From positions 14,743 through 78,742 of the forward strand of contig DATIYF010000017.1 in assembly GCA_035517775.1 (NCBI GenBank): DNA of 64,000 nt, read 5' to 3'. Position numbers and translations under genes: made by a program. Numbering within the stretch: the stretch's first letter is position 1; the number at the start of each line of letters is the position of its first letter. Below are positions 7,747-37,210 of this stretch, piece by piece. Source of the DNA: Terriglobales bacterium (GTDB taxonomy: Bacteria; Acidobacteriota; Terriglobia; Terriglobales; Acidobacteriaceae). The notes beneath the pieces were generated by a model. The model searched no databases, was not told the DNA's origin, and worked only from the letters and a program-made list of their open reading frames with translations.

Positions 7747-8768
7747 CTGGCTGCCCGCAAGTCTGGGGAACTGCTCGGCGGCGCTTCGCCCGGTCCGACT
7801 GTCTGCACAGTCCAGGGTATTTCGATATTGGGATCATCGTCGGAGGTCAGCCGCCAGGGCAAATAGACCCGTACCGCGCCATAGGGCTCCTGCTCAATTC
7901 CCTTCCAGGTATATTTGCCCGGTAAAACGGGAAACAGGTTTTTGTCGGGCACTTCTAACGTGGCTGCGGGAAGATCCCACGCCATGGCATTGGCGACGTC
8001 CAGTTCGAAAAAAGTCCGGACCGGAATGCCAAAGAATCCGTTGGCAATGATATTGGGAATCAGCAATCGCCTGATGTCGTTGAACCGCGGGAAGTGACTG
8101 ATCTTGTTGACGGTAGCCGAGGCGGTGAAAGTCAACTTGAGCAGAGGCTGGCCGGTGAGCAGGGTTGCAACCTTGAAGGCATAATCGAAGGGCGGATCGC
8201 CCGCGCCGGTCAGGGTCACTCGCTCCCAGAACTTAGGATAGCCACTCAGCCGCCCGAAGATGGTCGGCATCAGCCGATTGAGATAAAGCCGGTACGGGTA
8301 AAGATACGGGCCTTTGTACTTGTACTGACCCCCGGGAACGGAGACCCGCGGAATTGCCGCCAGAAACTCACTGTAATTGAGGCCGAGAAAGGAATAGCGG
8401 TAAGACCGGGCGTTCTCGAATGTCCCGAAACCGAGCACAACCGGGTAAGAGCCATTATGAACCGCCTTCGGGTCCGTGAGCATACCGTTGGGCAGGATGG
8501 ATTGGGCATCCTCAGGTTTGACGTTTGCAATCAAAAATGTGGCGATGTAGTTGCCGGTCCAGCAGTGGCGGGCTTTGCAGGGCGATTGCGCTCCCACCTC
8601 GGGGTCCCAGCTGGAGAGCCCGGGGGGATAGTACTGCAGCGAGGGCTGCAGTGGTACCAAGGGGCCGACCAGCGGTGTTGGCCCCGAAGACGCCTGCGAA
8701 AGCAGAACGGGAGCAACCTGCCCAAGCAGGGCCCCGAGCGCTGACCATCGGCCTAAGCCTTGAAACAT
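7743..8768 (-). CDS. secreted hypothetical protein, possibly acetoacetate-decarboxylase-like beta-cone fold
   Basis: 341-aa ORF with a hydrophobic N-terminus (ALGALLGQVAPVLL). The motif FGRLSGYPKF resembles the GRE.wG.PK Schiff-base lysine motif of the ADC family. The family assignment is from memory only. Confidence 0.55.
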   Translation of the reverse strand: MFQGLGRWSALGALLGQVAPVLLSQASSGPTPLVGPLVPLQPSLQYYPPGLSSWDPEVGAQSPCKARHCWTGNYIATFLIANVKPEDAQSILPNGMLTDPKAVHNGSYPVVLGFGTFENARSYRYSFLGLNYSEFLAAIPRVSVPGGQYKYKGPYLYPYRLYLNRLMPTIFGRLSGYPKFWERVTLTGAGDPPFDYAFKVATLLTGQPLLKLTFTASATVNKISHFPRFNDIRRLLIPNIIANGFFGIPVRTFFELDVANAMAWDLPAATLEVPDKNLFPVLPGKYTWKGIEQEPYGAVRVYLPWRLTSDDDPNIEIPWTVQTVGPGEAPPSSSPDLRAAS

Positions 8769-9013
8769 CGCACCCTCTATCGCCGGCCCCGGAAGCCGGG
8801 TCTGAAAGTGTACCTACTCCGACCTGTCCTCGCAACGGAAAAGAGATTATTCGGAATTCCCGTCTCACTGTTAGACTGTAGGACTACCAATCCAGCACTA
8901 ATCCCGGTTCTGTAGCGGTCTCGTTCTGTGGGATGCCTCAGCCCCAAGACCGCCGTTTTCGTGAGGAAACGCAGTAATTTGCCGAAGAGTGCCGATCCGC
9001 TGCACGTCCCGGC

Positions 9014-12000
9014 ATGGCACGTACGATGAAAGTGAACTGCCAGCGTCCGCAACTGCTTCAGTGCGTTGTAGCGATGCCGATTGTCCTCTTAGCGCTCGCC
9101 GGCTCCAGCTACGCGCAGACGCCGACCACGGGGCAGCTCAGTGGAACTATCAGCGATCCGAGCGGCGCGCTGGTCATTGGGGCGCAGGTCTCGGTCACCA
9201 GCGCGGCTGGAGTCTCACGAGAAGTCTCAAGCGATTCAACCGGCGAATACCTGGTTCCGCTGCTTCCTCCCGGCACATATCAGGTGGAAGTGCAAAAGAG
9301 CGGGTTTGCCAATAGCGTAACTCCCGGCGTCGCAGTGCGGATCACAGCGATCACCAACCTCGACGTTCATTTGCAACTGGCGCAGCGAAAAGAGAACGTC
9401 GAGGTAACCTCCGAACCGCCGCTTGTGCACACTGACACTCCCGCCCGCGGCGCGGTCATCCAAAGCAGCGAGATTCGGCAATTGCCGCTGGTGACCCGCA
9501 ACTTCCAGCAACTCTTGACCCTCACGCCGGGGACTTCGAGCTCGGTGCCCAACTCCTCCGAACTGGGCCGCGGAGATTCCGTCTTCAACGTGAACGGCCA
9601 GCGCACGCTCGCGAACGCGGTAGTTATTAACGGGGTGGATGCAAGCTCCATCGGCACCGGCTCCACCCCCAACCTCGCCGTTCCCTCCGATGATTCGATT
9701 GAAGAGTTCATTGTTCAGACCAGCTTCTACGATGCTTCCCAGGGGCGCAATGCGGGCAGTGTGGTGGCCGCGGTCACCAAGTCGGGAACCAACACGCTGC
9801 ACGGCGATGCCTACGAATTTCTGCGCAATAGCGACCTGAATGGCAACAACTTCTTTCTCAATCGCGCCGGCATCGGCCGCCCGCCTTACCATCGCAATGA
9901 ATTTGGTGCAACCCTGGGCGGGCCGGTGGTCAAAAATCGCGCCTGGTTCTTCGTCTCTTACCAGGGAACGCGGGAGGTGAATGGAACCTCGCTCACCAAC
10001 TCTCTGGGTACGGTGTTCGTTCCCGCCGACCTTTCCAACGACCGCTCGACCGCCACGATGGAAGCTCTGGCGGCCAGCTACGGCATGCCGCCATGTCCCA
10101 ACCTCGGTTGCCTGGACCCGACTTCACTGACCTTGCTGCAGGCAAAGCTGCCCAACGGGCAGTTGGTGATTCCTTCGGCGCCGCATCCAATTCCCATTCC
10201 GGCCAGCGGGCCGGCCCCTCCCGTCCCCGTTCCCATCATTGCGATTTCCCGCTTTCGCGAAGATCAGTTCAACACCAATGCCGATCTTCAGCTTTCCTCC
10301 GCGAACCGGCTCTCGGCGAAATTCTTCTGGGCTAACAATCCTGAGCTACAGGGCCTCTACAATTCGTTCGGCACGGGCAACACGCTCCCCACTCCGGGCT
10401 TCGGTGCTTCGGCAAGCTTCAACCAGCGCGTTTTGGCGATCACCGACACCCACATCCTGAATCCCAGACTGTTGAACGATTTCCGTTTCGGCTACTCGGG
10501 AATTCCAACCAACTCGGTTCCGCAGGAGCCCTTCACCGCGGCCCAGCTCGGAATCAGCTCGCCGCTCGGCAATCTGTTTACCGGAATGCCGGAAATTTCG
10601 GTCTCCAATTACTTCGATCTCGGCGCCTCTCCTTTCTCCGACAATAAGGCGGCCGAAGGCGATTACACGGTGGGAGATACTTTGGCCTGGGTGAAAGGCC
10701 GGCACACGCTCAAGCTGGGCGCCGAGTACGAGCACCACAATGTTACTCTGACCTTCAACGCCTATACCCGTGGCCAAATGTTTTTCCTCGGCTTCTCTGG
10801 AGATCCCTTCGAAGATTTTCTGGGCGGTTTCTTTGACCTCTCCGGACTGAGCGTGATCGGCTCGGGAATCAACCACCGCGATAACTCCTCCTATGACCTG
10901 GCCGGATTTGCCACCGACGATTTTCGCCTGAGCCGGCGACTCACTCTTTCTCTGGGGCTCCGTTACGAATACTTCAGCCCCTATGTGGAAGCGCAGGGCC
11001 GAACTCTCGCCTTCGATCCCACCAAGTTGACGACCACGACGATCGCGGGAGCGCCCCCCGGCGACAACGTGGCGATCACCGGCGGCTTTGTGCAGGCGGA
11101 TAACGCCGCCCATCCCATTCCCGGGGTTCCCACTACCCGGTCGTCGCTGGTTCCACCCGACAAGAACAATTTTGCTCCCCGAATTGGCTTTGCCTGGCAG
11201 CCCCTTCCGGAGAAAACCCACGCGTTCGTTGTTCGCGGCGGCTACGGCGTCTATTACGACAAGCCCAATTCGCGCTACATCAACCTGCAGCTGCTGAACT
11301 TTCCCTACTACACTCTCGCCGAGGCATTCACTACGCCAATCGCCACTCCATTCGTAGAGGTCCCCCAGCCGAGCCAGTTTCCGCTCGCCTTCAACGATGC
11401 AACGATCTTTCCCTACGGTGGCCCTCCCGCGTTTCTGCCTGCGCCCGTAGCCGGCGGCGTGCAGCCGGTCTCCGCCAATGGCGTCTTCCCTGACATTCAT
11501 GACTTCCGCACTCCCTATGTGCAGCAATACAGCCTGGGGATCGAGAACGAATTCGCCAACCACTGGATGGCGGACGTGAGCTATGTCGGGTCGGCGGGAG
11601 AAAAGCTATTGCGCACCATGGACCTGAACCAGCCCTTCGCTCCGGTCTCGCTCACCCCCGGGCCGCTCAGCCCTGGCTTATCAAGCCTGGTGGTGACGGG
11701 CTTCGGCTTCCACCTGGTACAGAGCTCTTCCACGTCGCGTTACAACTCGCTGCAGGCCAGCCTGACCAAGCGCTTTGCCGCGGGTCTGCAATTTCTGGCT
11801 GCCTACACTTACAGCCACTCGATTGACGACTATTCCGGCGACCCCAGCGGCACCAGCGATGTGAGCGCGGTCCCGGGCAACCAGGTGATTCTGAACAATC
11901 GCGGCAACTCAGATTTTGACCGTCGCCACCGCTTCATCTTCAGCGGTACCTACGACCTGCCCAAGCTTTACCGCGGTGAGTTCAAGCCGGCAGCGGAAAT

Positions 12001-12457
12001 TGCCAACGGCTGGAAACTGGCCAGCATAGTTACCGTCCAGACCGGCACCCCCTACTCTGTGCTGACCGATGCCACCCCTTTCGTGCAGGCCCGCGCCGAC
12101 TACAACCCGGCCCAGCCCGGTTGCGACCCCAACCTGAGCGGCAGCGTCCTCGACCGCCTCGGCCAATATTTCAATACCTCATGCTTTGTTCCCGCCACCG
12201 CGGCCGGCGAGTTTGGCAACACCGGCCGGAACATCCTTTACGGGCCGGGCCAGAAAGACGTGGATATCGCGGTGCTTAAAGACTTTGCAGTCAGTGAACG
12301 AAGCTCGCTCGAGTTCCGCTCTGAGTTCTTCAACGCTCTCAACAACGTGAACTTCGCCAACCCCGTCAATCTCCTCTCCAATGCGAACGTGGGCGCAATC
12401 CTGGCCACGACTACCGGTCCACGCGCCATGCAGTTCGCCTTGAAGTTCAGTTTCTAA
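9014..12457 (+). CDS. TonB-dependent outer-membrane receptor with N-terminal carboxypeptidase-regulatory-like domain
   Basis: Signal peptide ending SSYAQT. CarboxypepD_reg-like segment GTISDPSGALVIGAQVSVT...STGEYLVPLLPPGTYQVEVQKSGF. Plug/barrel-sized 1147 aa. C-terminal ...FALKFSF with terminal Phe. Confidence 0.9.
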   Translation: MARTMKVNCQRPQLLQCVVAMPIVLLALAGSSYAQTPTTGQLSGTISDPSGALVIGAQVSVTSAAGVSREVSSDSTGEYLVPLLPPGTYQVEVQKSGFANSVTPGVAVRITAITNLDVHLQLAQRKENVEVTSEPPLVHTDTPARGAVIQSSEIRQLPLVTRNFQQLLTLTPGTSSSVPNSSELGRGDSVFNVNGQRTLANAVVINGVDASSIGTGSTPNLAVPSDDSIEEFIVQTSFYDASQGRNAGSVVAAVTKSGTNTLHGDAYEFLRNSDLNGNNFFLNRAGIGRPPYHRNEFGATLGGPVVKNRAWFFVSYQGTREVNGTSLTNSLGTVFVPADLSNDRSTATMEALAASYGMPPCPNLGCLDPTSLTLLQAKLPNGQLVIPSAPHPIPIPASGPAPPVPVPIIAISRFREDQFNTNADLQLSSANRLSAKFFWANNPELQGLYNSFGTGNTLPTPGFGASASFNQRVLAITDTHILNPRLLNDFRFGYSGIPTNSVPQEPFTAAQLGISSPLGNLFTGMPEISVSNYFDLGASPFSDNKAAEGDYTVGDTLAWVKGRHTLKLGAEYEHHNVTLTFNAYTRGQMFFLGFSGDPFEDFLGGFFDLSGLSVIGSGINHRDNSSYDLAGFATDDFRLSRRLTLSLGLRYEYFSPYVEAQGRTLAFDPTKLTTTTIAGAPPGDNVAITGGFVQADNAAHPIPGVPTTRSSLVPPDKNNFAPRIGFAWQPLPEKTHAFVVRGGYGVYYDKPNSRYINLQLLNFPYYTLAEAFTTPIATPFVEVPQPSQFPLAFNDATIFPYGGPPAFLPAPVAGGVQPVSANGVFPDIHDFRTPYVQQYSLGIENEFANHWMADVSYVGSAGEKLLRTMDLNQPFAPVSLTPGPLSPGLSSLVVTGFGFHLVQSSSTSRYNSLQASLTKRFAAGLQFLAAYTYSHSIDDYSGDPSGTSDVSAVPGNQVILNNRGNSDFDRRHRFIFSGTYDLPKLYRGEFKPAAEIANGWKLASIVTVQTGTPYSVLTDATPFVQARADYNPAQPGCDPNLSGSVLDRLGQYFNTSCFVPATAAGEFGNTGRNILYGPGQKDVDIAVLKDFAVSERSSLEFRSEFFNALNNVNFANPVNLLSNANVGAILATTTGPRAMQFALKFSF

Positions 12458-12462
12458 CGCCC

Positions 12463-12485
12463 GGCAGCAAGAAGTTATTGCTGCC
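12463..12485 (+). terminator. stem-loop just after the TonB-receptor stop (8-bp stem GGCAGCAA/TTGCTGCC, 7-nt loop), no U-tract
   Basis: Read directly: ggcagcaa-gaagtta-ttgctgcc, 6 nt after the stop codon. The lack of a T-run makes intrinsic termination uncertain. Confidence 0.3.
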
Positions 12486-12696
12486 AAGGGTGTCCTGCCC
12501 GGCGAGATTTCCGAAAGGGGAAATTTGGCATCCACCACCGCGTAGCCCGGCGCGCCGCTTGCCCTTTACCGGCAACACCCACCAGCCGCGTTCCGCGCGA
12601 GGTTGCAACTGGTAGCAACAAACCTGAAACAAAATCTGCAAATACTCTTGACCCAGAATGTGAGGCCGCTCTACGATTGAGGACTGCTTTCGTAAA

Positions 12697-12711
12697 TGCA
12701 ACTGAGTTGCA
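12697..12711. promoter_or_regulatory. perfect 7-1-7 palindrome TGCAACTgAGTTGCA upstream of the TetR gene (candidate autoregulatory operator)
   Basis: Seen in sequence. It lies downstream of a possible TTGACC(12648)-N18-TACGAT(12672) promoter. A related GTTGCAACTGGTAGCAAC lies at 12602..12619. It is followed by AACTAAG, which recurs at the downstream operon promoter. Confidence 0.35.
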
Positions 12712-12744
12712 ACTAAGAACCCAGAGAGTAACCAGGGGCAAACG

Positions 12745-13443
12745 GTGTTCCAATTGGGGATGGGGCGTGTACGGCCACACGGGATTGCCATGCGGGGAGT
12801 GAGCCTCGGCACAGGGTCAGGCGGGAACCGCAGAACGATTTCTGCGCGCAAGTTCCGGCCCGGCCGGCGTGACCGGCATGCTCGCGAGCAGGCGCTGGTT
12901 GCGGCGGCGGCCAAACTGTTTGCCTCTCAGGGTTACGACCTTACCACTACCCGCCAGATCGCGGCCCGGGCCGGTTGCGCCGAAGGCCTCATTCACCGTT
13001 ACTTCCATGGCAAGGCCGGCCTGCTGTTCGCCCTGATTCAGTCCCGGGTCTCCAAGGAAGTGGCCGGCCTGAGTGAACGGTTGCGGCGCGCCCCCAGCCT
13101 GGAGGAGGAATTGTTGCAACTGGTGGACTGGGAGATCGAGCGCATGTGGGACGATCGGGATTTCCTGCGGGTCATCATCCCTCGTGCCCTCCTCGACCGG
13201 AGTCAGGGCAAAATTCTCAATCGTGTGGGCACCTCTCGTCATGTTCCCGCCATTGCCGAACGCCTGCGGCAATTTCCCCAGTGCCGAAAGCTCTCTGCCG
13301 AGCGCCTGGAGGCGCTGGCCGAATTCATCAAAACCCTGGGCATGATGTATGGCTTCATGCATCCCATGGTCCTGCGCCAGGACCGCAAGCGGGCGCGCCG
13401 CTCGGCCGTCGCCATCACCAGAATTCTTGCCGCCAATCTCTGA
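12745..13443 (+). CDS. TetR/AcrR family transcriptional regulator
   Basis: HTH region AAAKLFASQGYDLTTTRQIAARAGCAEGLIHRYFHGKAGLL. The ORF-track start is GTG; in-frame ATGs at 12760 and 12790 are alternative starts. Confidence 0.85.
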   Translation: MFQLGMGRVRPHGIAMRGVSLGTGSGGNRRTISARKFRPGRRDRHAREQALVAAAAKLFASQGYDLTTTRQIAARAGCAEGLIHRYFHGKAGLLFALIQSRVSKEVAGLSERLRRAPSLEEELLQLVDWEIERMWDDRDFLRVIIPRALLDRSQGKILNRVGTSRHVPAIAERLRQFPQCRKLSAERLEALAEFIKTLGMMYGFMHPMVLRQDRKRARRSAVAITRILAANL

Positions 13444-13491
13444 TCAGAGAACCGTTTCTATTCCCGTACATCCCGGCCGCTAGGTTTTTGC

Positions 13492-13521
13492 TTGACAGTT
13501 AACATCGCGAGGTGCTAACTA
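13492..13521 (+). promoter_or_regulatory. candidate sigma70-type promoter with overlapping inverted repeat (candidate TetR operator) for the cytochrome-porin/cox operon
   Basis: TTGACA (13492-13497), 18-nt spacer, TAACTA (13516-13521). The inverted repeat AGTTAACA (13497-13504) / TGCTAACT (13513-13520) matches 7 of 8 positions and spans the spacer. GCTAACTAAG resembles GCAACTAAG next to the TetR-upstream palindrome. AGGAGG lies 8 nt before the ATG at 13648. Confidence 0.4.
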
Positions 13522-13647
13522 AGTGCACACGCGCTTACAAACGCTATCAGTTGCGTGTGCGCCTACATTCCCTTTCGCGTCTCGCACCGCATGTGGGGTT
13601 TTACTCGGGTTCACAATTTGGCTCAGATTCCGTGCTAGGAGGACTCC

Positions 13648-14985
13648 ATGACTTCGTCCCGGAGGAGTCTTGCAGCATTCGTGCTGCTTGCGTTTTTCAT
13701 TCTGGGGTCGTTTCAGAGTGCACACGCCTTTCCTGCTTTCGCTAGAAAGTATGGCCTTCGCTGTTCCGCCTGCCACGAGGCTTGGCCGATGCTCAACGCC
13801 TTCGGCCAGAAATTCAAAGACAATGGCTATCAGTTAATGGATGATCGGGATTCCCCGATCTGGCAAAACAACGGCTATTGGCCGGTGACCTTCCGCATCA
13901 CTCCCTATTGGCATCGGGATAGCACCGACAAGGTTTCAACCGACCAGGCCTCCACCGGCCAGCAGAAGGTAACCATCAATGGCTTTGACCTGAGCGGCCT
14001 CGATATCCTGAGCGGCGGCACCATCTACAAGAACATTTCTTTCCTGATGGTTCCTTCCGCCGATGAGACCGGCGCCTTTCACTTTGAATCAGTCAACGTC
14101 CGCTTCGACAACGTAGCCCACAGTTCCTGGCTGAATTTCAAGATGGGCAAATTCGAATTGGATAACCTGGTCTCGGAAAAGCGCGAGATAACCCTTTCCG
14201 GCAACGGCGCGAACTATCTGATCTATCACTTCATTCCTGCGACGTGTGCCGGCTGTGCGGATGATTCCAACGTCTTCGGGCAGGTTGGCGACAACCAGCT
14301 TGGTGTGGAGTGGCTGGGGCACTCGTACGACGACCGCACCCGAATTTCCGCCACCTTGATGAGCACCAACGACGGCAACGTGGACTTGCCAACGAACAGC
14401 TACGGGGGGTTCTTTGCCGCCAGCCAGGCGTTTGACGCGGGCAAGCTGGGCTTGCAGCGCGTCGGCTTCTACGCCATGGTGGGTCAGTCGCCGACTTACT
14501 ACTTAACGTCAGGCGGCACTCCGCTGGGCTTCGGTAGCCTGGGCAACAAGACGTTCACTCGGGAAGGCTTCGTCGGGCTCTTCTACCTGGGCAAGCTGGA
14601 TTTCCAGGTGGTCACCCAGCATGGCGAGGATGACGCATTTCTGGCAACCGGCACAGCCGCCAACACTGCGCTGCCCACGGGCGCCCGGAATGCCACCTGG
14701 AACGGTGGGCTGGTTGAGACGCACTATGTCTACAACCCGCAGCTGATCTTTATTCAGCGTTATGACTGGGTGCGCATGTCGCAACAAGCCACACCCGGCA
14801 CGCCCTCGACCCTGGGGAACATGGACCAGCTCACCTTCGGGTATCGCTATTACCCATTCATGACCAGCCGGGCCGGTCTTGCCTGGCACAACGAATATTC
14901 CTGGTTGCGTCAACGGGGAATGGCGCCAGACGGAACTGACCTAACCACCGGCACCCTGATGCTGGGACTCGACTTCGACTTCTAG
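13648..14985 (+). CDS. monoheme c-type cytochrome fused to an outer-membrane beta-barrel (Cyc2-like fused cytochrome-porin candidate)
   Basis: Signal peptide MTSSRRSLAAFVLLAFFILGSFQSAHA. Then FPAFARKYGLRCSACHEAWPMLNAFGQKFKDNGY, with the single CxxCH at nt 13762-13776. The remaining ~390 aa are rich in alternating amphipathic strands (VTFRITPYW, FHFESVNVRF, WLNFKMGKFEL, RISATLMST, FVGLFYLGKLDFQVV, LVETHYVY, LTFGYRYYP, AGLAWHNEYSW). It ends LMLGLDFDF with terminal Phe. Confidence 0.7.
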   Translation: MTSSRRSLAAFVLLAFFILGSFQSAHAFPAFARKYGLRCSACHEAWPMLNAFGQKFKDNGYQLMDDRDSPIWQNNGYWPVTFRITPYWHRDSTDKVSTDQASTGQQKVTINGFDLSGLDILSGGTIYKNISFLMVPSADETGAFHFESVNVRFDNVAHSSWLNFKMGKFELDNLVSEKREITLSGNGANYLIYHFIPATCAGCADDSNVFGQVGDNQLGVEWLGHSYDDRTRISATLMSTNDGNVDLPTNSYGGFFAASQAFDAGKLGLQRVGFYAMVGQSPTYYLTSGGTPLGFGSLGNKTFTREGFVGLFYLGKLDFQVVTQHGEDDAFLATGTAANTALPTGARNATWNGGLVETHYVYNPQLIFIQRYDWVRMSQQATPGTPSTLGNMDQLTFGYRYYPFMTSRAGLAWHNEYSWLRQRGMAPDGTDLTTGTLMLGLDFDF

Positions 14986-14992
14986 AGAGGGA

Positions 14993-15856
14993 ATGACGAT
15001 GCGCACAAAGCTACTCAAGTGGTCGCTGATGATGGGCGCAACCATGGTCCTCGCGCTGTCGGGCCATTCGCAAGCCCAGCTGACAACGGAAAACATAGCC
15101 TCTCGTCTTAACATGGAAGCCCATGCTGACGGTTTGACAGGCCACGCCAAGGCGGCGGAGATGGACTATCGCCGCTACTGCGTCGGCTGTCATGGACCGT
15201 TGGGAGACGGCAACGGCGAGAACGCGACGTGGCTCGATCCCAAGCCGCGCGACTTCCAACTCGGGATTTTCAAGTGCCGCTCCACTCCGACTGGCACGCT
15301 GCCCACCGATGAGGATCTGTTCGACACCATCGCCCGCGGCCTGGATCGCTCGAACATGCCTCCGTGGAACACCTTCACGAAGCAGATGCGGATTGATCTG
15401 GTGGCTTATGTGAAGCACTTCTCTCCCCGCTTTGCTACGGAAAAGCCGGGCGCGCCCATTCAAATTCCACCCGAGCCGGAAGTTACTGCCGACCGGGTCA
15501 AAGCGGGGCGGGAGTTGTTCAAGAAAATGGAGTGCTGGAAGTGCCACGGTGTGCAAGGCATGGCCAATGGTCCTTCTTCTGCCACGCTCACCGACGACCA
15601 GAACCGCCCGATTCTGCCTTACAACTTTACCGACGGCACCCGCCCCAAGTGCGGATCTACCGACCGCGATATCTACCGCATCTTCATGACCGGTCTGGAT
15701 GGGACGCCGATGCCATCGTTCTCCGACAACATCAAGCCCGACGAGGCTTGGGACCTGGTGTTCTACCTGCGAACCCTGCAGCCCGCCAACGGCATGAACA
15801 CCAAGGAGCGGGAGATCGCCAAGCAGCTTAACCTGCCGCCGGTAACGCCAGATTAA
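14993..15856 (+). CDS. diheme c-type cytochrome (periplasmic or membrane-anchored)
   Basis: N-terminal hydrophobic signal/anchor. Two CxxCH motifs: YCVGCHG (nt 15179-15193) and CWKCHG. Starts 7 nt after the upstream stop. Confidence 0.9.
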   Translation: MTMRTKLLKWSLMMGATMVLALSGHSQAQLTTENIASRLNMEAHADGLTGHAKAAEMDYRRYCVGCHGPLGDGNGENATWLDPKPRDFQLGIFKCRSTPTGTLPTDEDLFDTIARGLDRSNMPPWNTFTKQMRIDLVAYVKHFSPRFATEKPGAPIQIPPEPEVTADRVKAGRELFKKMECWKCHGVQGMANGPSSATLTDDQNRPILPYNFTDGTRPKCGSTDRDIYRIFMTGLDGTPMPSFSDNIKPDEAWDLVFYLRTLQPANGMNTKEREIAKQLNLPPVTPD

Positions 15857-15889
15857 TCAGAGACGAAACGGAAAACAGGAGAGAGCCCA

Positions 15890-16645
15890 ATGAAGAGAGC
15901 GTACAAGTACAAGCTGGCTGCCATGGTGCCGGCGCTGGCTCTGGTGGCGGTAGCCATTGCCCTGCTTGGCCCCAAAGTGAGTGCTGCTCCGGCCGGAGAA
16001 GGCAGCATTACCGGCATGGCCAAGCTGGATGGCAGTGCTCCGCACATGCGCGGCATAGACATGACCAAGGACCCCTGGTGCGCCAAGCAGCACGCTGATA
16101 ATCCCGCCCATCTGGAAAATGTGGTCGTGGGCAAGAACAGCGGCCTGGAGTATGTGGTGGTTTACATCTCTGAAGGCCTGAGTGGCGCCGAAGCTGGGGA
16201 AAAGCCCTCGCAGGTGCCGGTTTTCGATCAGAAGAACTGCATGTACACACCTCACGTGCTGGCGATGGATGTCGGCCAGCAGTTCAAGGTGATCACCAGT
16301 GACCAGACCGCGCACAACATCCATCCCGAGCCGAACCCGATGACCGGCAACATTCCCTGGAACCGGTCGCAGCCGCCGGGCGCGCCTCCCATCCTCACCA
16401 GCTGGAAGACCGAGGAGATGATTCAGGTGAAGTGCAACATTCATCCCTGGATGCACGGATGGTTTGCCGTGGTCAAAGGTCCTTATGGCACCACGGACGA
16501 TGACGGCAACTACACCATCAAAGATGTGCCGCCGGGAAGCTATACCCTGACGGCCTGGCAGGAAGAGTACGGGAAACAAACCGCTAAGGTGACAGTTGCA
16601 GCCGGTAAGCCTGCCACTGCGGACTTTACCTTCAAAGCAAAGTAA
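15890..16645 (+). CDS. type-1 (blue) copper cupredoxin with amicyanin-type ligand loop and C-terminal CarboxypepD_reg-like beta-sandwich
   Basis: N-terminal anchor/signal AAMVPALALVAVAIALL. Upstream His in QTAHNIHPEP. C-x2-H-x2-M loop CNIHPWM (nt 16433-16453), compare amicyanin CTPHPFM. C-terminal TTDDDGNYTIKDVPPGSYTLTAWQEEYG. AGGAGA Shine-Dalgarno. Confidence 0.8.
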   Translation: MKRAYKYKLAAMVPALALVAVAIALLGPKVSAAPAGEGSITGMAKLDGSAPHMRGIDMTKDPWCAKQHADNPAHLENVVVGKNSGLEYVVVYISEGLSGAEAGEKPSQVPVFDQKNCMYTPHVLAMDVGQQFKVITSDQTAHNIHPEPNPMTGNIPWNRSQPPGAPPILTSWKTEEMIQVKCNIHPWMHGWFAVVKGPYGTTDDDGNYTIKDVPPGSYTLTAWQEEYGKQTAKVTVAAGKPATADFTFKAK

Positions 16646-16664
16646 GACGGTGTGTCACCGGCGA

Positions 16665-16693
16665 AACTGGCGCAGCCCCCGCCTGCGCCAGTT
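16665..16693 (+). terminator. strong intra-operon stem-loop (11-bp perfect stem AACTGGCGCAG/CTGCGCCAGTT, loop CCCCCGC) between the cupredoxin gene and coxB
   Basis: Read directly. Not followed by a clean U-run (ttcgctgcttc). It could be an attenuator, processing site or mRNA-stability element rather than a full terminator. Confidence 0.35.
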
Positions 16694-16746
16694 CGCTGCT
16701 TCAAGTCGTATACACCAGACAGACAGCCAACTAGAGGCGAAACGCT

Positions 16747-17547
16747 ATGGCCAAGTTGTTTGCCGTGACCATCATCCTTATTGCTATCGCGTCAGCGGTT
16801 CCGATCGTACGCGGCACCTGGACTCAGCCGGTGGATATCTCCACTCATGGCCACTCCATTGACGAGCAGTTCCACGAAACCATGTGGGAGGCCGGGCTGG
16901 CCTTCCTGGCAGCGCAAATCGTCCTCGGACTTTTCATCTGGACCAGCGCCGGCCGGGGCCCCGATGCCCAAATCAAGCGCTTTCCCGGAGGGGCTACGGG
17001 TTTGGTTCTGGCCGCGGTTTTTCTGGTGGGGACGGAAGTGATCGCTTTGGGGATATTCGGCGTCAATGCCTGGGCCCAGGTCTATTTCGCGCCGCCCGGG
17101 CCGGACGCCATGCCCATTCAGGTGCAGGCCGGGCAATTCGCCTTCTACTTTCGCTATCCCGGCCCTGACGGGAAGTTCGGGCCCATTCACCCCGACAAGA
17201 TTGATGAGGCCAACCTGAATTTCTTCGGCCTGGACTATGACGAGCCTGCCACCAAGGATGACATTGTTACCGCCGAGATGGCCATTCCGGTGAACCGGGA
17301 AATTCATTTGCTGATGCACTCCAAGGACCTCGGGCATTCCTTCTATGTGCGCGAGCTGCGGGTGCAGCAGGATTTTGTGCCCGGCCTCGACGTCTCTCTG
17401 CACTTCACGGCCACCAAGGTCGGCAGGTACGAAATTGTCTGTACACAGCTTTGCGGGCTGGGGCATTACAACATGAAGACCTACCTGGAAGTGATGTCGC
17501 AGCAGGATTTCGACGGCTGGCTGAAAAAAGAAGCAGCCATGCAGTAG
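16747..17547 (+). CDS. coxB: cytochrome c oxidase subunit II (CuA subunit, no fused cytochrome c domain)
   Basis: TM helices followed by a cupredoxin domain with CuA ligands HSFYV...CTQLCGLGHYNM. The protein ends 25 aa after the CuA site and contains no CxxCH. Confidence 0.95.
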   Translation: MAKLFAVTIILIAIASAVPIVRGTWTQPVDISTHGHSIDEQFHETMWEAGLAFLAAQIVLGLFIWTSAGRGPDAQIKRFPGGATGLVLAAVFLVGTEVIALGIFGVNAWAQVYFAPPGPDAMPIQVQAGQFAFYFRYPGPDGKFGPIHPDKIDEANLNFFGLDYDEPATKDDIVTAEMAIPVNREIHLLMHSKDLGHSFYVRELRVQQDFVPGLDVSLHFTATKVGRYEIVCTQLCGLGHYNMKTYLEVMSQQDFDGWLKKEAAMQ

Positions 17548-17608
17548 TTACGGCCCTCGCCTGCTCACGCCGCAGGGCGAGGATTTCTGGTTCGCGAGGT
17601 GATGACAC

Positions 17609-19381
17609 ATGCACGATGTATCTGCCCCTGCGGTACACCACGGTCCACCGCAGAGCTTCATCAGCAAATACGTCTTCAGTCTCGACCATAAGGTGATCGG
17701 CAAGCAGTATTACGCCCTGGCCCTGGTTGCAGTCTTCACCGGCATGGTGCTTTCCTGGCTCATGCGGCTGCACCTCGGCTACCCCGACCTGAAGATTCCC
17801 GGCCTGCATCTGCTCTCCAAGATTGGCGCTCCGGGCGACGTCATGACGCCGGAGTATTACCTGCAGTTGATGACCATGCACGGCACCATCATGGTCTTCT
17901 TCGTGCTGACCACGGCGCCCTTCGCCGCCTTCGGCAACTTCTTCCTGCCCATCCAGGTGGGTGCCGAAGATATGCCCTTCCCGCGCTTCAACATGATGTC
18001 GTTCTGGGTCACCTTCGTGGCTTTTCTGGTTCTGATCGCCGCGTTTTTCGTGGGCGACGGCCCGCCGCTCTCCGGCTGGACCGCTTATGCGCCGCTTAGC
18101 GCCGTGGGCGCGGTGGCCGGCCCTGGACAAGGTTTGGGGCAGATTCTGTGGGCGGCTTCGATTGGCATCTTCTGTATCGGCCAGCTATTGGGCTCACTCA
18201 ACTTCATAACGACTACCCTCGACATGCGCACCAAAGGCATGAGCCTGATGCGCCTGCCGCTGAGCGCCTGGGCATGGTTCATCACCTCCTGCATGGGGCT
18301 TACCGCCTTCGCCGTGCTCATGCCGGCCTGCATTCTGCTTATTCTTGACCACGTGGCCGGCACCAGCTTCTTCATTCCCTCAGGCCTGGTGATCAATGAT
18401 CAGCTACAGCCCCATTCTGGCGGCTCTACGCTGCTCTGGCAGCACCTGTTCTGGTTTTTTGGACATCCCGAGGTCTATATCGCCATTGTGCCTGGCATGG
18501 GCATCGTCTCGCACGTGCTCATCACCAACATGCGCCGGCCGCTGCTCAGTTATAAGGTGATGATCGCCTCCATGACCTCCATCGCCTTCCTGAGTTACAT
18601 GGTTTATGGACATCACATGTTCGTCAGCGGGATGAACCCCACGTCGTCGCTGGTGTTTTCATTCCCCACGCTGGTCATCACCATCCCGGCGACCATTATT
18701 ACGCTCATCTGGATCGGCAGCCTGTACGGCTCGCGATTGCGCATCAACGCCGCTTCGCTGTTCGCCCTGGGCTTTATCTCCATGTTCGTGGCCGGGGGCG
18801 TAAGCGGCTTCTTTCTGGCCCAGCCCTCGATCGACATCATGCTGCACGCCACCTACTTCGTTGTCGGCCATTTCCACCTGGTGATGGCGGTGGCCGCCAT
18901 CTTCGGCATCTTCGCCGGGACTTACTTCTGGTTCCCCAAAATGACCGGCAGAATGATGAACGAAACCCTGGGCAAGATTCACTTCTGGTTCAGCTTCGTC
19001 GGCGCCTACTGCATCTTCATGCCCTTCCACTACCTGGGCATCATGGGCAACGTCCGCCGCTACGCGCAGTTCGTAGATGACTACATGCAACCGGTTCTGG
19101 GCGTACACAAGTTCATTACCATTGCCGCGCTCACCACGGGCGCCGCGCAGTTGATCTTCCTCTACAACCTGATTTACAGCCGCTTTTGGGGAGCAAAAGC
19201 TCCTGACAACCCCTGGGAGGGCACGTCGCTGGAATGGAGCACGACCTCGCCGCCGCCGTGGGATAACTTTGGCGGCAAGCATCTGGTGGTCCATCACGAT
19301 CCCTATCAGTACGGGATGAAAAGCTCAACCGGCGATTACATCATGCAGACCTCGCCGGAGCCTTCGCCGACTGGAGAGTAA
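17609..19381 (+). CDS. coxA: cytochrome c oxidase subunit I (A-type heme-copper oxidase)
   Basis: WFFGHPEVY (His-Tyr), YGHHMFVSG (CuB His pair), VVGHFHLVM (heme ligands). Polytopic membrane protein of 590 aa. Confidence 0.97.
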   Translation: MHDVSAPAVHHGPPQSFISKYVFSLDHKVIGKQYYALALVAVFTGMVLSWLMRLHLGYPDLKIPGLHLLSKIGAPGDVMTPEYYLQLMTMHGTIMVFFVLTTAPFAAFGNFFLPIQVGAEDMPFPRFNMMSFWVTFVAFLVLIAAFFVGDGPPLSGWTAYAPLSAVGAVAGPGQGLGQILWAASIGIFCIGQLLGSLNFITTTLDMRTKGMSLMRLPLSAWAWFITSCMGLTAFAVLMPACILLILDHVAGTSFFIPSGLVINDQLQPHSGGSTLLWQHLFWFFGHPEVYIAIVPGMGIVSHVLITNMRRPLLSYKVMIASMTSIAFLSYMVYGHHMFVSGMNPTSSLVFSFPTLVITIPATIITLIWIGSLYGSRLRINAASLFALGFISMFVAGGVSGFFLAQPSIDIMLHATYFVVGHFHLVMAVAAIFGIFAGTYFWFPKMTGRMMNETLGKIHFWFSFVGAYCIFMPFHYLGIMGNVRRYAQFVDDYMQPVLGVHKFITIAALTTGAAQLIFLYNLIYSRFWGAKAPDNPWEGTSLEWSTTSPPPWDNFGGKHLVVHHDPYQYGMKSSTGDYIMQTSPEPSPTGE

Positions 19382-19429
19382 CTGGCGGGGGAGTCATAAG
19401 TTAACGGGAATTGGGAAGAAGTCAGGGAC

Positions 19430-20101
19430 ATGGCTACTACAGTTCACGAACCACCGCAGATCAAATCGCCTCGGCGCTCGACAGCAGACTCCGGAGGCGG
19501 GGGCTGGCGCAACCTGGTTCCGGCCGGGGGAAATCTCCGCGCCGTGCGGGATGATTCTTCCCCAGCCTCACGCACCGGCATCTGGGTAGCGATCGCCGCC
19601 ATCACTATGACTTTTCTGGCCTTCACCAGTGCGCTGGTGGTACGCCAGGGGGCCTCGAATGACTGGCGGCACATGCAGCTGCCGGGAATCATTTACTTCA
19701 ATACCCTGGCTTTGTTGGCCAGCAGTTTCACGCTTGAGGCCGGCCGCCGCGGCTTTCGCGCCATGCAAGGCGACCTCAGCCGGCGTGCCGCGACCTTGCG
19801 TGCGCTCTATGCCACGCTCGGCCTGGGCCTGGTTTTTGTAGCCGGTCAATACATGGCCTGGCTGCAACTGAAGGCGGAAGGCTTATACCTTGCCACCAAT
19901 CCCAGCAGCTCTTTCTTTTATGTGTTTACGGCCGTGCACGGGCTGCACGTTCTGGGCGGGCTGGCCGGGCTGGTTTACGTGATCCGGAAGCTGAACAGAA
20001 ACCATCTGCATGGCAGCACGCTGAAGACGGCTTCCCACTACTGGCATTTTATGGATGTGCTCTGGCTGTACTTGCTTTTGGTGCTTTGGATGAAGCTCTA
20101 G
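19430..20101 (+). CDS. coxC: cytochrome c oxidase subunit III
   Basis: Five-helix subunit-III pattern: FYVFTAVHGLHVLGGL and HYWHFMDVLWLYLL. Confidence 0.88.
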   Translation: MATTVHEPPQIKSPRRSTADSGGGGWRNLVPAGGNLRAVRDDSSPASRTGIWVAIAAITMTFLAFTSALVVRQGASNDWRHMQLPGIIYFNTLALLASSFTLEAGRRGFRAMQGDLSRRAATLRALYATLGLGLVFVAGQYMAWLQLKAEGLYLATNPSSSFFYVFTAVHGLHVLGGLAGLVYVIRKLNRNHLHGSTLKTASHYWHFMDVLWLYLLLVLWMKL

Positions 20102-20118
20102 TCCATACAGGAGGCGCT

Positions 20119-20748
20119 GTGAGCGAAGCTAATCTGACCATGGAGGCACACGGTACCGGGCTGATGGAGGCCTCGCCGTTTGCCGTGCCGGCCAAGAAGC
20201 TGGCCATGTGGCTGTTCATCATCGCCGATGCGATGACCTTTGCCGCGGTTCTGATCGCCTACGGTTTTCTGCGCAACAGCACTCCTAGCTGGCCGGAGCC
20301 CTTCGAGTTCTCGCCCTCCATCATCAACGTGATGGTCATGACCTTCATCCTGATCAGCAGCAGCCTTACCATGCTGTTTGCCATCCGCGCCGCACAGGTC
20401 AGCGACAAGGCCCGGGCCTTTACATGGATTCTGATCACGGCCCTGGCCGGCGCGGTTTTCGCCCTGCTGCACATTCGCGAGTGGCTGGGCATGATCGGCC
20501 AGGGGGTGGGACTGTTTCACAATCCCTGGGGAACTCCGTTATTTGGCGCCGCCTTCTTTTGCGTCACCGGACTGCACTTGTTGCACGTCACCGGCGGAGT
20601 CATAGCTCTGGTGGCCGTGGGCTTGCGCTACCAGAGAGGCCGTTACAAGGCCGACGATATTGAAATTCTGGGTCTGTACTGGCACTTCGTGGATATTGTC
20701 TGGATGTTCGTGGTGCCGTTGGTCTATTTGCTGAGCATACACCGCTGA
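20119..20748 (+). CDS. second heme-copper oxidase subunit III family protein
   Basis: FFCVTGLHLLHVTGGV and LYWHFVDIVWMFVVPLVY. I place the start at the in-frame GTG 20119, preceded by AGGAGG (20109-20114), rather than the ORF-track start 20086 that overlaps coxC. Confidence 0.85.
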   Translation: MSEANLTMEAHGTGLMEASPFAVPAKKLAMWLFIIADAMTFAAVLIAYGFLRNSTPSWPEPFEFSPSIINVMVMTFILISSSLTMLFAIRAAQVSDKARAFTWILITALAGAVFALLHIREWLGMIGQGVGLFHNPWGTPLFGAAFFCVTGLHLLHVTGGVIALVAVGLRYQRGRYKADDIEILGLYWHFVDIVWMFVVPLVYLLSIHR

Positions 20749-20772
20749 CCGCCAACCGGAGGATGAACTGCT

Positions 20773-21090
20773 ATGACCCCTATGGAAGAACACGGGAACT
20801 TGACCACGGATGTTATTGTATATCTCGTTCTTTTAGGCATCGCCGGCCTGCAAATCATTCTGGCGTATAGCTATCACGGTGGCGGCGAGGGTCTGCTGGG
20901 GCGCCTGTTGATCGTGGCGGCCATCCAGGCGGTTGTAGCGGTCTTGTTTTTCATGCACCTGCGGTGGGAGAATCGGGCCATGTTGGTTTCGGTGGCGGTG
21001 GTGACGCTTTTCGTACTGATATCACTGCAGTACAGCTGGAGTGATAGCTTTCGCTTGCTGCACGGCGTGCCCTTCGCGCGCTTTCATTAA
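20773..21090 (+). CDS. cytochrome c oxidase subunit IV (prokaryotic small subunit)
   Basis: 105 aa with three hydrophobic helices (VIVYLVLLGIAGLQIILA, LLIVAAIQAVVAVLFFMHL, MLVSVAVVTLFVLISL). Position right after subunit III. GGAGGA Shine-Dalgarno. Confidence 0.75.
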   Translation: MTPMEEHGNLTTDVIVYLVLLGIAGLQIILAYSYHGGGEGLLGRLLIVAAIQAVVAVLFFMHLRWENRAMLVSVAVVTLFVLISLQYSWSDSFRLLHGVPFARFH

Positions 21091-21101
21091 ACTGATTGAA
21101 G

Positions 21102-21392
21102 ATGACTCGGCCCCGGAGCTCGATGTGGTTCGCCGCCTTTGCCGCGGGGGTGTTGCTGCTTTCCGCCTCTCTGCCTGCGTTTGGGCAGGGCTGCGCTCTC
21201 TGTTACACTCAGGCGGCCTCTTCGGGCGCGCGCATGATTCATGCCCTGCGTGACGGCATCCTGATTCTGGTGTTGCCGCCCACTTTAATGTCGGTGGGGG
21301 TGGCCTTCGTGGCCTATCGCAGGCGCGACTATTTTCACCGCCCGGAAAGTTCACAACCGGATTTCCCCACGGAGCTCCATGGCGACGACTGA
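21102..21392 (+). CDS. small membrane protein with signal peptide, CxxC motif and C-terminal TM helix
   Basis: MTRPRSSMWFAAFAAGVLLLSASLPAFGQGCALCYTQ...ILILVLPPTLMSVGVAFVAY. The ORF-track start 21096 is TTG; ATG at 21102 is preferred. It overlaps the ctaB start by 14 nt. Confidence 0.55.
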   Translation: MTRPRSSMWFAAFAAGVLLLSASLPAFGQGCALCYTQAASSGARMIHALRDGILILVLPPTLMSVGVAFVAYRRRDYFHRPESSQPDFPTELHGDD

Positions 21393-22281
21393 GACCATGA
21401 CATCTTTCGGGTACAGGCAGAGCTTGCCTTGCAGGCTGCGGGATTACTACACCCTGACCAAGCCGGAAGTGAACCTGCTGATTCTCATCACCACGTCAGC
21501 CGGGTATTACCTGGGAAGCCAGAGTGGCTTTCGTTTTGCAGGACTGATCAACACGCTGATCGGTACCCTGCTGGTAGCGAGCGGCACTGCCACTCTCAAT
21601 CAGTATATGGAGCGCGGCTACGACGCGCAGATGCGCCGCACCGCGAGCCGGCCGGTCGCTTCCGGACGGATGGCAGCGCTCGAAGCCTTCCTGTTTGGCG
21701 TGGTTCTGAGCGTAGCCGGCGGAATTTACCTGTGGGCCACGGTCAATTCGCTGGCCGCGGTGCTGGCCGTTTCCACCCTTCTATCCTATTTATTGGTGTA
21801 CACGCCGCTGAAGCGGGTCACTCCGCTCTGCACCCTGCTGGGGGCGATTCCTGGCGCTATGCCAACGCTGATCGGATGGGCCGGGGCCTCGGGCACTCTG
21901 AACCTGCAGGCATGGTTCCTGTTCGCGGTGCTGTTTCTGTGGCAGTTTCCGCACTTTCTCGCCATCGCCCTGATGTACCGTGAGGATTACGCCCGCGCCG
22001 GTTACAAGATGCTGCCCGGCTTCGATGCCGAAGGCCGCTTTACCCGCGCAGAGATCACTGCTTTCACCATCGCGCTCACCGCCGTCACGTTGTTGCCGGT
22101 CTTCGCTGCCGGCCCCAGCTTGACGTATCTGCTGGCCATGGGAGCGGCGGGTGCATTCTTTCTCTATTACAGCGCCCGGCTTTCGGTCACCGCGTCGCGG
22201 GGCTCGGCCAAACACCTGGTGCACGCGTCTGTGATCTATTTGCCGGTGGTGTTTCTGATTATGATTGTCTGCAGGCCCTGA
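21379..22281 (+). CDS. ctaB: protoheme IX farnesyltransferase (heme O synthase)
   Basis: UbiA-family polytopic protein. Motifs: LTKPEVNLLIL, NQYMERGYDAQMRRTASRP, and WQFPHFLAIALMYREDYARAGYKMLP typical of CyoE/CtaB. Confidence 0.93.
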   Translation: MATTETMTSFGYRQSLPCRLRDYYTLTKPEVNLLILITTSAGYYLGSQSGFRFAGLINTLIGTLLVASGTATLNQYMERGYDAQMRRTASRPVASGRMAALEAFLFGVVLSVAGGIYLWATVNSLAAVLAVSTLLSYLLVYTPLKRVTPLCTLLGAIPGAMPTLIGWAGASGTLNLQAWFLFAVLFLWQFPHFLAIALMYREDYARAGYKMLPGFDAEGRFTRAEITAFTIALTAVTLLPVFAAGPSLTYLLAMGAAGAFFLYYSARLSVTASRGSAKHLVHASVIYLPVVFLIMIVCRP

Positions 22282-22289
22282 AGTTCGTT

Positions 22290-37141: not shown

Positions 37142-37167
37142 CCCGCGGGCGGTATGGCGCAGAAAAG

Positions 37168-37196
37168 CTCTGTGCCCTCCGCGCCCTCTGTGGTTA
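37168..37196 (-). repeat. copy of dispersed AACCAC-(CRRAGG)n intergenic repeat
   Basis: The reverse complement reads aaccacagagggcgcggagggcacagag. It lies between the stop at 37141 and the likely true start at 37211 of the next gene. Confidence 0.6.
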
Positions 37197-37210
37197 AATT
37201 CCTTCTGCCA

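Follow-up and report, generated by a model that had tools for sequence, protein, structure and literature searches.

We found that a gene in a 64,000-nucleotide (nt) stretch of DNA from a soil Terriglobales bacterium (Acidobacteriota) very probably encodes a member of the Cyc2 family, i.e., a single-heme c-type cytochrome fused to an outer-membrane porin. The stretch (hereafter the window, to which all coordinates refer) spans positions 14,743–78,742 of the forward strand of contig DATIYF010000017.1 in assembly GCA_035517775.1 and has a G+C content of 61%. The assignment draws on the architecture of the protein, an N-terminal signature and a predicted porin fold, and these, together with profile homology to reference Cyc2 proteins, support the family that a preliminary description of the DNA had proposed. 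Iron-oxidizing bacteria employ Cyc2 to obtain electrons from dissolved iron, and its gene serves more widely than any other as a marker of microbial iron oxidation. The window protein is 100% identical to VLV49_02800, a 'hypothetical protein' of a Terriglobales bacterium at NCBI, and it shares this label with thousands of close relatives that are likewise unrecognized by Pfam and NCBIfam. The gene is constantly accompanied by genes for two electron carriers, a diheme cytochrome c and a cupredoxin, and the trio is usually fused to a terminal-oxidase operon; this context provides stronger circumstantial evidence for the entry of electrons into respiration than a lone match to cyc2 would.

The cytochrome domain and the porin-like barrel

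In the definition of Keffer et al. (2021), a Cyc2 protein has a signal peptide, one CXXCH with the motif AXPXFAR[Q/K][T/Y] just before it and PXL four residues downstream, and a porin, over a length of at least 365 amino acids; these authors call the upstream motif unique to Cyc2 and describe the porin part as poorly conserved in sequence. Every sequence feature by which Keffer et al. (2021) and FeGenie recognize the family is present in the window protein. First, its N-terminus, MTSSRRSLAAFVLLAFFILGSFQSAHA-FPAFARKY, displays a basic n-region, a hydrophobic core and an AHA-F cleavage site. We judged this signal peptide by inspection of the sequence together with a helix at residues 4–20 of a structural model; A25 and A27 are conserved in an alignment of 33 close relatives. 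Second, CSACH at residues 39–43 (nt 13762–13776), 12 residues past A27, is the sole CxxCH of the protein. Third, the segment AFPAFARKYGLRCSACHEAWPML is an exact fit to AXPXFAR[Q/K][T/Y], CXXCH and then PXL, and reads A27-F-P-A-F-A-R-K-Y35, GLR, C39-S-A-C-H43, EAW and P47-M-L49. Fourth, the length of 445 amino acids lies above the threshold of 365. The residues after CSACH, WPMLNAFGQKFKDNGY at positions 46–61, carry P47-M-L49 and then N50-x-F-G-x-x-F-K-D-x-G-Y61, all within the cytochrome domain. The preliminary description had claimed a cleavable signal peptide followed within 12 residues by a single CxxCH, and we recovered both; the signature that it gave, FAR....C..CH / LN.FG..FK, proved essentially right, agreeing with the published motif and with the consensus strings of the groups compared below.

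This region is strongly conserved. C39, C42 and H43 are invariant along with their flanks in the 33 close relatives, in 31 diverse relatives (28–66% identity) and in a set of 128 relatives, while P47 is invariant and L49 nearly so in the alignment of the diverse relatives. About 20 residues around the heme motif remain invariant or nearly so down to 28% identity, whereas the barrel diverges; full-length representatives to this distance keep the pattern A-x-P-x-F-A-[RK]-x-[YT]-x3-C-x2-C-H-x3-P-x-L-N-x-[FV]-G-x2-[FY]-[RK]-D-x-G-[YF]. Further, the spacing FAR[KQ][YT]+3+CxxCH is identical in more than 100 motif-bearing genes, including those of Acidithiobacillus, Gallionella, Sideroxydans and Zetaproteobacteria. 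Among up to 8,000 candidates, relatives of the window protein made up at least 5,400 clusters (90% identity), and a search of 1.84 billion cluster representatives with a family profile returned 3,035 matches at E ≤ 1e-3, of which 688 reached ≤ 1e-10 and 229 reached ≤ 1e-30. The best 120 relatives (64–100% identical) are unnamed or 'hypothetical', with the organisms, where named, all belonging to Terriglobales; the cluster members of 10 distant representatives are named 'hypothetical protein' only.

These patterns bear on the explanation that the protein is a plain diffusion porin in which the N-terminal CxxCH arose by chance and no heme is bound. Such a porin would be in keeping with the Pfam and NCBIfam searches, which gave no cytochrome assignment for the window protein or 31 relatives and merely sporadic matches of family members to the generic porin models BBP2, OMP_b-brl and Porin_O_P. 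However, a chance CxxCH would not have its C39, C42 and H43, with some 20 nearby residues, held in distant relatives; the segment is the published Cyc2 signature; and the gene is always accompanied by two redox carriers. Best hits to non-cytochrome porins with a chance motif, which the preliminary description had named as evidence that would tell against it, were looked for and not found. We therefore reject the plain-porin explanation as vanishingly improbable.

Beyond the cytochrome domain, an AlphaFold2 model built from 128 relatives (mean predicted local distance difference test score, pLDDT, 84.4; predicted template modeling score, pTM, 0.82) features a confident all-β barrel at residues 80–445, with pLDDT mostly above 90. 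Foldseek searches against PDB matched it to PorB (E 6e-13), OprP (2o4v, 1.5e-11), OprO (4rjw/4rjx), Omp32 and OmpF, with E-values from 6e-13 to 1e-10, target-normalized template modeling scores of 0.55–0.73 and sequence identities of 9–13%; these best structural matches are 16-stranded porins that have no heme domain. A C-terminal Phe is typical of outer-membrane β-barrel proteins. Thus, the β-strand-rich remainder ending in LGLDFDF that had been noted earlier is a predicted all-β barrel with such a terminus, and the inner-membrane or soluble topology that would have spoken against it was sought and not found, the predicted fold being that of a porin barrel. The literature reports the same templates, namely OprO/OprP for Cyc2 (Keffer et al. 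2021) and PorB for Cyt572. Searches of PDB with the protein and with the family profile returned no solved sequence relative. Within the close family the mean column identity is 72%, which is unusually high for a porin barrel, and this conservation could help to reveal the pore features that set substrate specificity in the Cyc2 family.

One peculiarity of the window protein is a six-residue insertion (ATCAGC in the alignment) at residues 198–204 (nt 14239–14259), which brings in C200 and C203 ('CAGC') and is carried by none of the 32 aligned close relatives. These cysteines are not a heme site; they may form a loop disulfide. H225, which is nearly invariant, is a candidate for the distal ligand of the heme.

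Relationship to characterized Cyc2 proteins

Reference genes were collected by scanning one genome per bacterial species with a DNA pattern for P-x-FAR[QK]T-x3-CxxCH, which gave at least 120 loci. They include Acidithiobacillus sp. (L011, L105), Thiomonas (L115), Gallionella (L065, L067, L099, L112), Sideroxydans (L041), other Gallionellaceae and Zetaproteobacteria/Mariprofundaceae (L014, L023, L027, L082). The pattern takes genes of the FAR[QK]T type and leaves out the FARKY type, and there is no Leptospirillum among the loci, so that Cyt572 stands outside this comparison. From the loci we extracted 83 full-length open reading frames (ORFs) of 381–713 amino acids with one CxxCH each. Full-length profile comparisons with hhalign then linked the window family both to the Gallionellaceae/Zetaproteobacteria group (99.5%, E 3e-23, 360 columns) and to the Acidithiobacillus/Thiomonas group (98.8%, E 8e-17, 288 columns), the two reference groups matching each other at 99.8% (E 2e-29, 368 columns). 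The hidden Markov model alignments reach profile positions ~135–165, past the motif used for selecting the references, and one consensus of the cytochrome domain is common to the window family, the Gallionellaceae/Zetaproteobacteria group and the Acidithiobacillus-type group. In a BLASTP comparison with an Acidithiobacillus sp. homolog, the heme region alone aligned (38 residues, 45% identity, E 6e-8).

Average-linkage clustering of 114 sequences yielded three groups, namely the window family, the Gallionellaceae/Zetaproteobacteria sequences and Acidithiobacillus plus others. The window protein is 16–17% identical to each reference group, just under the 17–23% reported between Cyc2 clusters (Keffer et al. 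2021). With Cluster 1 Cyc2 (Mariprofundus Cyc2PV-1 and Gallionellaceae) it shares the full-length profile match, the cytochrome-domain consensus and the size range, the Gallionellaceae/Zetaproteobacteria genes coding for 407–472 amino acids; however, its family forms a separate cluster, with ~16% identity to the Cluster 1-type group and FARKY in place of FARQT. Likewise, Acidithiobacillus Cyc2 has the same architecture and N-terminal signature, but overall identity is ~17% and the barrels are barely alignable.

The window family probably corresponds to the published 'Cluster 3', a placement made from sequence relationships. It is suggested by three facts: Acidobacteriota Cyc2 proteins have been assigned to this cluster in published work, the network neighbors of Leptospirillum Cyt572 in the literature are sequences from Acidobacteria and Nitrospira, and the window family is a separate, barrel-divergent cluster. 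With Cluster 3/Cyt572 (McAllister 2020; Keffer 2021) the window protein has in common the signal peptide, the single CXXCH, FAR[Q/K][T/Y] with PXL, and the porin barrel, for which PorB is the reported best template of Cyt572 and likewise the top match here. In addition, the neighboring cytochrome in the window has a weak cytochrome-579-like match. On the other hand, Cyt572 is larger than the window protein, with residue numbering to at least 553, and its gene is not clustered with those of its partners, whereas the window gene lies in one operon with partners and oxidase. Since Cyc2 is well known and cyc2 has already been reported in metagenome-assembled genomes of Acidobacteriota from mine tailings, clay till and hot springs (the last placed in Cluster 3), we regard the window protein as an addition to a known family.

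Certain observations count against the family assignment. Barrel-only hhalign comparisons of the window family with the reference groups are marginal (E 1e-3 and 0.07), whereas the two reference groups match each other at E 1e-10. The N-terminal match is in part circular because the motif itself served to select the reference genes. In the model, the heme domain (residues 21–76) is of low confidence (pLDDT 33–66), which is expected since AlphaFold2 built it without heme. Finally, DSSP finds 18–19 strand elements in the model as a whole and does not reproduce the canonical 16; of the 16-strand outer-membrane barrel proposed earlier, AlphaFold2 and Foldseek sustain the porin-type barrel but do not confirm the strand number.

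The reference scan also uncovered a second Cyc2-like gene, of the FARQT type, in Acidobacteriota (L040, L070, L104, L029 and L053, from Terriglobales, Acidobacteriaceae, Bryobacterales and Acidobacteriota genomes). The full-length copies in L029 and L053 group with Acidithiobacillus/Burkholderiales-type sequences, and those in L040, L070 and L104 are partial with the FARQT signature. Judging from these groupings, the Acidobacteriota appear to hold at least two distinct Cyc2 lineages. In the Acidithiobacillus sp. locus L105 (2982–7663), the Cyc2 homolog is followed by genes for two diheme c4-type cytochromes, a short-chain dehydrogenase and, by its motifs, a Rieske-like protein, a context that resembles the pet operon rather than rus.

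A conserved three-gene module and its proposed role in electron entry

We compared the window with nine loci coding for relatives at 35–73% identity. The genes for the Cyc2-like protein, the diheme cytochrome and the cupredoxin with its CarboxypepD_reg domain are adjacent in all ten, with an extra gene in between at one, and in eight of the ten the module abuts a heme–copper oxidase operon on the same strand. Two kinds of oxidase are involved. In the window and in L001, L003, L129 and L130 (≥58% identity), the order is cyc2-like, diheme cytochrome, cupredoxin, coxB, coxA, coxC, coxC, coxD (aa3 type), with a STAS gene between the cupredoxin gene and coxB in L001 and L003. In L125, L127 and L128 (35–38% identity; ~6230–13900 in each), it is cupredoxin, cyc2-like, diheme cytochrome, a small ORF, ccoN, a FixO–cytochrome fusion, FixS and DsbD_2 (cbb3 type), with genes for a LysR regulator and a P-type ATPase upstream. 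The remaining two, L126 and the contig carrying P0313, possess the module with no oxidase adjoining. In alignments across these loci, the two partners are homologous, with heme motifs and copper ligands retained. Because the module is joined to two kinds of oxidase, we argue that its role is the delivery of electrons to an O2 reductase and not the assembly of one enzyme. Published models for neutrophilic iron oxidizers have electrons passing via Cyc1 to cbb3 oxidases. Neither the three-gene module, nor its cupredoxin, nor the fusion to aa3/cbb3 operons was found described in the literature searched.

The diheme cytochrome of the window starts 7 nt past the cyc2 stop codon, and the successive intergenic gaps from cyc2 are 7, 33, 101, 61 and 48 nt, followed by small gaps or overlaps as far as a UbiA-family gene, all on the same strand. 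Both heme motifs of the diheme cytochrome are conserved in the distant loci. It is closely related to chain B of PDB entry 6h5l (E 4e-55), an entry from the anammox organism Kuenenia stuttgartiensis superposed as an HAO structure; chain B is the diheme redox partner in that complex. The second domain gave a sub-threshold match (48.6 bits against a cut-off of 280) to the NCBIfam model for cytochrome 579 of Leptospirillum.

The third protein, of 251 amino acids, is called 'carboxypeptidase regulatory-like' in databases, and Pfam detects its C-terminal immunoglobulin (Ig)-like domain alone. We rejected the view that it is a mere 'carboxypeptidase regulatory' protein, its larger part being a cupredoxin, with the domain at residues ~60–197. 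This identification follows from three lines of evidence. First, H142, H145, C182, H185 and M188 do not vary among 54 relatives or in the distant loci; the loop C-N-I-H-P-W-M (C-x2-H-x2-M) is of amicyanin length, with H142/H145, C182, H185 and M188 as candidate type-1 copper ligands. Second, an AlphaFold2 model (pLDDT 78) matched in Foldseek the purple cupredoxin of Nitrosopumilus (5fc9, E 4e-5), Cupredoxin_1 (4hcf), amicyanin, CuA domains and plastocyanin. Third, some records of the Joint Genome Institute name its relatives 'plastocyanin'. An N-terminal helix at residues 6–25 would, going by the model, serve as a membrane anchor or signal.

Another explanation is that the module supplies metal for oxidase assembly, with the cytochrome–porin importing or reducing copper or iron and the cupredoxin acting as a copper chaperone for CuA/CuB. 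This would accommodate the attachment of the module to two oxidase-operon types, the cbb3 version lying near the P-type ATPase and the FixS/DsbD_2 assembly genes, and the resemblance of the cupredoxin model to the copper chaperone CupA (4f2e, E 6e-3). We nevertheless consider it quite improbable: the invariant diheme cytochrome c, close to 6h5l chain B, is not needed for copper delivery, the H/C/H/M set in an amicyanin-type loop corresponds to the blue copper ligands of electron-transfer proteins, and no known copper importer has such an architecture.

We instead favor, as fairly probable, a route by which electrons from extracellular Fe(II) reach O2. Upon removal of the Sec signal peptide, a domain of ~50 residues would carry one covalent c-type heme at or inside the periplasmic mouth of the outer-membrane porin barrel. 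By analogy with characterized Cyc2, a small dissolved reductant, most likely Fe2+, would enter the pore and reduce this heme. From there, the diheme cytochrome c and the membrane-anchored cupredoxin, both periplasmic and presumably co-transcribed with cyc2, would convey the electrons to the CuA center of the aa3-type cytochrome c oxidase whose genes come next, and this enzyme would reduce O2 and build proton-motive force. The attachment of the heme, the outer-membrane location, the direction of electron flow, the order of the two carriers and the Fe(II) substrate are inferred. Fe2+ is stable in acidic, periodically anoxic soils, which are the habitat of Terriglobales. Fe(II) would be the most likely donor because every biochemically tested member of the family (A. 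ferrooxidans Cyc2, Cyt572 and Cyc2PV-1) oxidizes it and because the one-heme, small-pore design suits dissolved ions (Keffer et al. 2021).

A parallel to this arrangement is the rus operon of A. ferrooxidans, with the order cyc2-cyc1-cup-coxBACD. The window operon likewise begins with cyc2, places genes for a diheme cytochrome and a cupredoxin after that for the outer-membrane cytochrome, and continues on the same strand with aa3 genes in the coxBACD order. Cyc1 is a c4-type diheme protein, whereas the diheme cytochrome of the window, in the same position, is not a c4-type homolog; going by its sequence, it is an analog of Cyc1 and not an ortholog. In the slot of cup (AcoP) between cyc1 and coxB, the window has the cupredoxin-fold protein with the H/C/H/M set, a comparison by position and fold; unlike the rus cupredoxin, that of the window is presumably membrane-anchored and is fused to CarboxypepD_reg. 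The hosts differ too, that of rus being an extreme acidophilic autotroph and that of the window a Terriglobales bacterium.

Some facts pull away from Fe(II) oxidation by this route. Whereas the rus operon has a rusticyanin gene, no further cupredoxin, and hence no rusticyanin gene, lies within 13648–24376 of the window, and in a BLASTP comparison of the diheme cytochrome with an Acidithiobacillus c4-type cytochrome the heme motif alone aligned. Terriglobales are described as organoheterotrophs, and to our knowledge they are not known iron oxidizers. Cyc2 homologs occur in organisms that are not known as iron oxidizers, and the function of Cluster 3 is held to be the least certain (Keffer et al. 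2021).

An alternative is the same family and oxidase wiring with another partner, such as Mn(II), reduced humic/quinone compounds or Cu(I), or an outward flow to Fe(III)/humics when O2 is scarce. Published work proposes a role for Cyc2 homologs in the Mn(II) lithotrophy of 'Ca. Manganitrophus', and such homologs are present in nitrifying Nitrospira; the function of Cluster 3 is flagged as uncertain (Keffer et al. 2021); and a difference in pore specificity would agree with a barrel that diverges strongly from those of iron oxidizers yet is conserved within its own family (mean column identity 72%). We regard this as unlikely, though less so than metal supply: all tested members (A. ferrooxidans Cyc2, Cyt572, Cyc2PV-1) oxidize Fe(II), the tight linkage to two types of O2-reducing oxidase favors inward flow to O2, and the window shows no sign of manganese or humic metabolism.

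The electron-entry route that we favor performs in outline the same job as MtoAB, PioAB and MtrCAB, which carry electrons through the outer membrane, with metals on one side and the periplasm on the other (Keffer et al. 2021). In those systems, separate proteins form a 26-strand barrel that encloses a decaheme wire, and solid minerals are within their reach (Keffer et al. 2021). The window protein, in contrast, combines one heme and a small barrel in a single chain and is hence expected to act on dissolved species alone (Keffer et al. 2021). For Acidobacteriota, a dominant phylum of soils that includes cultivable members, the operon offers a concrete, testable hypothesis of the oxidation of iron or another metal. 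Tentatively, and with less confidence than in the route itself, we raise the possibility that an electron-entry module is hard-wired to the aa3/cbb3 operons of Terriglobales and their relatives, which, if it forms an Fe(II), Mn(II) or humic chain, would make facultative lithotrophs of some among the most abundant soil 'heterotrophs'. If true, this would mean respiration on dissolved reduced metals at the oxic–anoxic interfaces of acidic soils and peat, and a large unrecognized biological Fe(II) sink.

Features of the locus and neighboring genes

Table 1. Coordinates of the cyc2-like gene, its parts and the adjoining genes in the window.
Feature	Coordinates	Strand	Basis
TetR-family regulator (true start codon uncertain)	12745..13443	+	Pfam TetR_N, E 3e-15
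Inverted repeat, 13-nt arms TAAGTGCACACGC / GCGTGTGCGCCTA, 20 nt apart	13520..13565		Lies in the 204 nt that separate cyc2 from the TetR gene
AGGAGG, Shine–Dalgarno-like, 5 nt 5' of the ATG	13637..13642	+	Read from sequence
Gene for the fused monoheme cytochrome–porin, very probably Cyc2 family, 445 amino acids	13648..14985 (including stop codon)	+	ATG-initiated ORF, translation
Predicted signal peptide, residues 1–27, A-H-A end	13648..13728	+	Sequence features and model helix 4–20
Cytochrome domain, residues 27–78	13726..13881	+	Match to published Cyc2 consensus; residues invariant in family
Predicted outer-membrane β-barrel, residues 79–445, ...LGLDFDF terminus	13882..14982	+	AlphaFold2 model, Foldseek
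Periplasmic diheme c-type cytochrome, 287 amino acids, CVGCH and CWKCH	14993..15856	+	Pfam Cytochrom_C / Cytochrome_CBB3, two class-I cytochrome domains
Predicted membrane-anchored cupredoxin-like protein with C-terminal CarboxypepD_reg (Ig-like), 251 amino acids	15890..16645	+	AlphaFold2/Foldseek, conserved ligands
Cytochrome c oxidase subunit II (CoxB), CuA motif C-x3-C-x3-H-x2-M	16747..17547	+	Pfam COX2, NCBIfam CoxB
Cytochrome c oxidase subunit I (CoxA)	17609..19381	+	Pfam COX1, E 2e-127
Two subunit-III-like genes (19430–20101 and 20086–20748)	19430..20748	+	Pfam COX3, both
Prokaryotic oxidase subunit IV	20773..21090	+	Pfam COX4_pro, E 2e-9
UbiA-family prenyltransferase	21379..22281	+	Pfam UbiA, E 3e-52

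The translation of coxB contains the CuA motif CTQLCGLGHYNM and has no fused cytochrome c domain. A 98-amino-acid ORF lies between the COX4_pro and UbiA genes. The UbiA-family gene, which occupies the same position in L001 and L003, presumably codes for the heme O synthase (CtaB), given its location. At the other end, a TetR gene adjoins the cluster in L001 and L003 as well, and the inverted repeat in front of cyc2 could be a TetR operator or a hairpin of the 5' leader. A scan of the locus for consensus promoters and terminators gave no signal above shuffle controls.

Two genes upstream of the cyc2-like gene, the window codes for an outer-membrane protein of 1147 amino acids with CarboxypepD_reg, Plug and OMP_b-brl_4 domains that is like a TonB-dependent receptor (9014–12457, + strand). 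Right after the oxidase cluster is a pair of genes for secreted SH3-domain proteins (22290–23222 and 23219–24376, + strand). In L130, homologs of this pair (34% identity, E 4e-42) directly precede the cyc2-like gene, as do genes of similar size in L001, L003 and L129, which makes the SH3 pair a recurrent neighbor. Farther downstream is a gene for a 984-amino-acid protein with five CxxCH motifs, a weak match to Cytochrome_C554 and C-terminal TPR repeats (32496–35450, + strand). It is followed by genes for two large FG-GAP/ASPIC-UnbV proteins (35450–37141 and 37154–40663), and the genes of this region (32496–40663) may constitute a second, unrelated multiheme system in the window.

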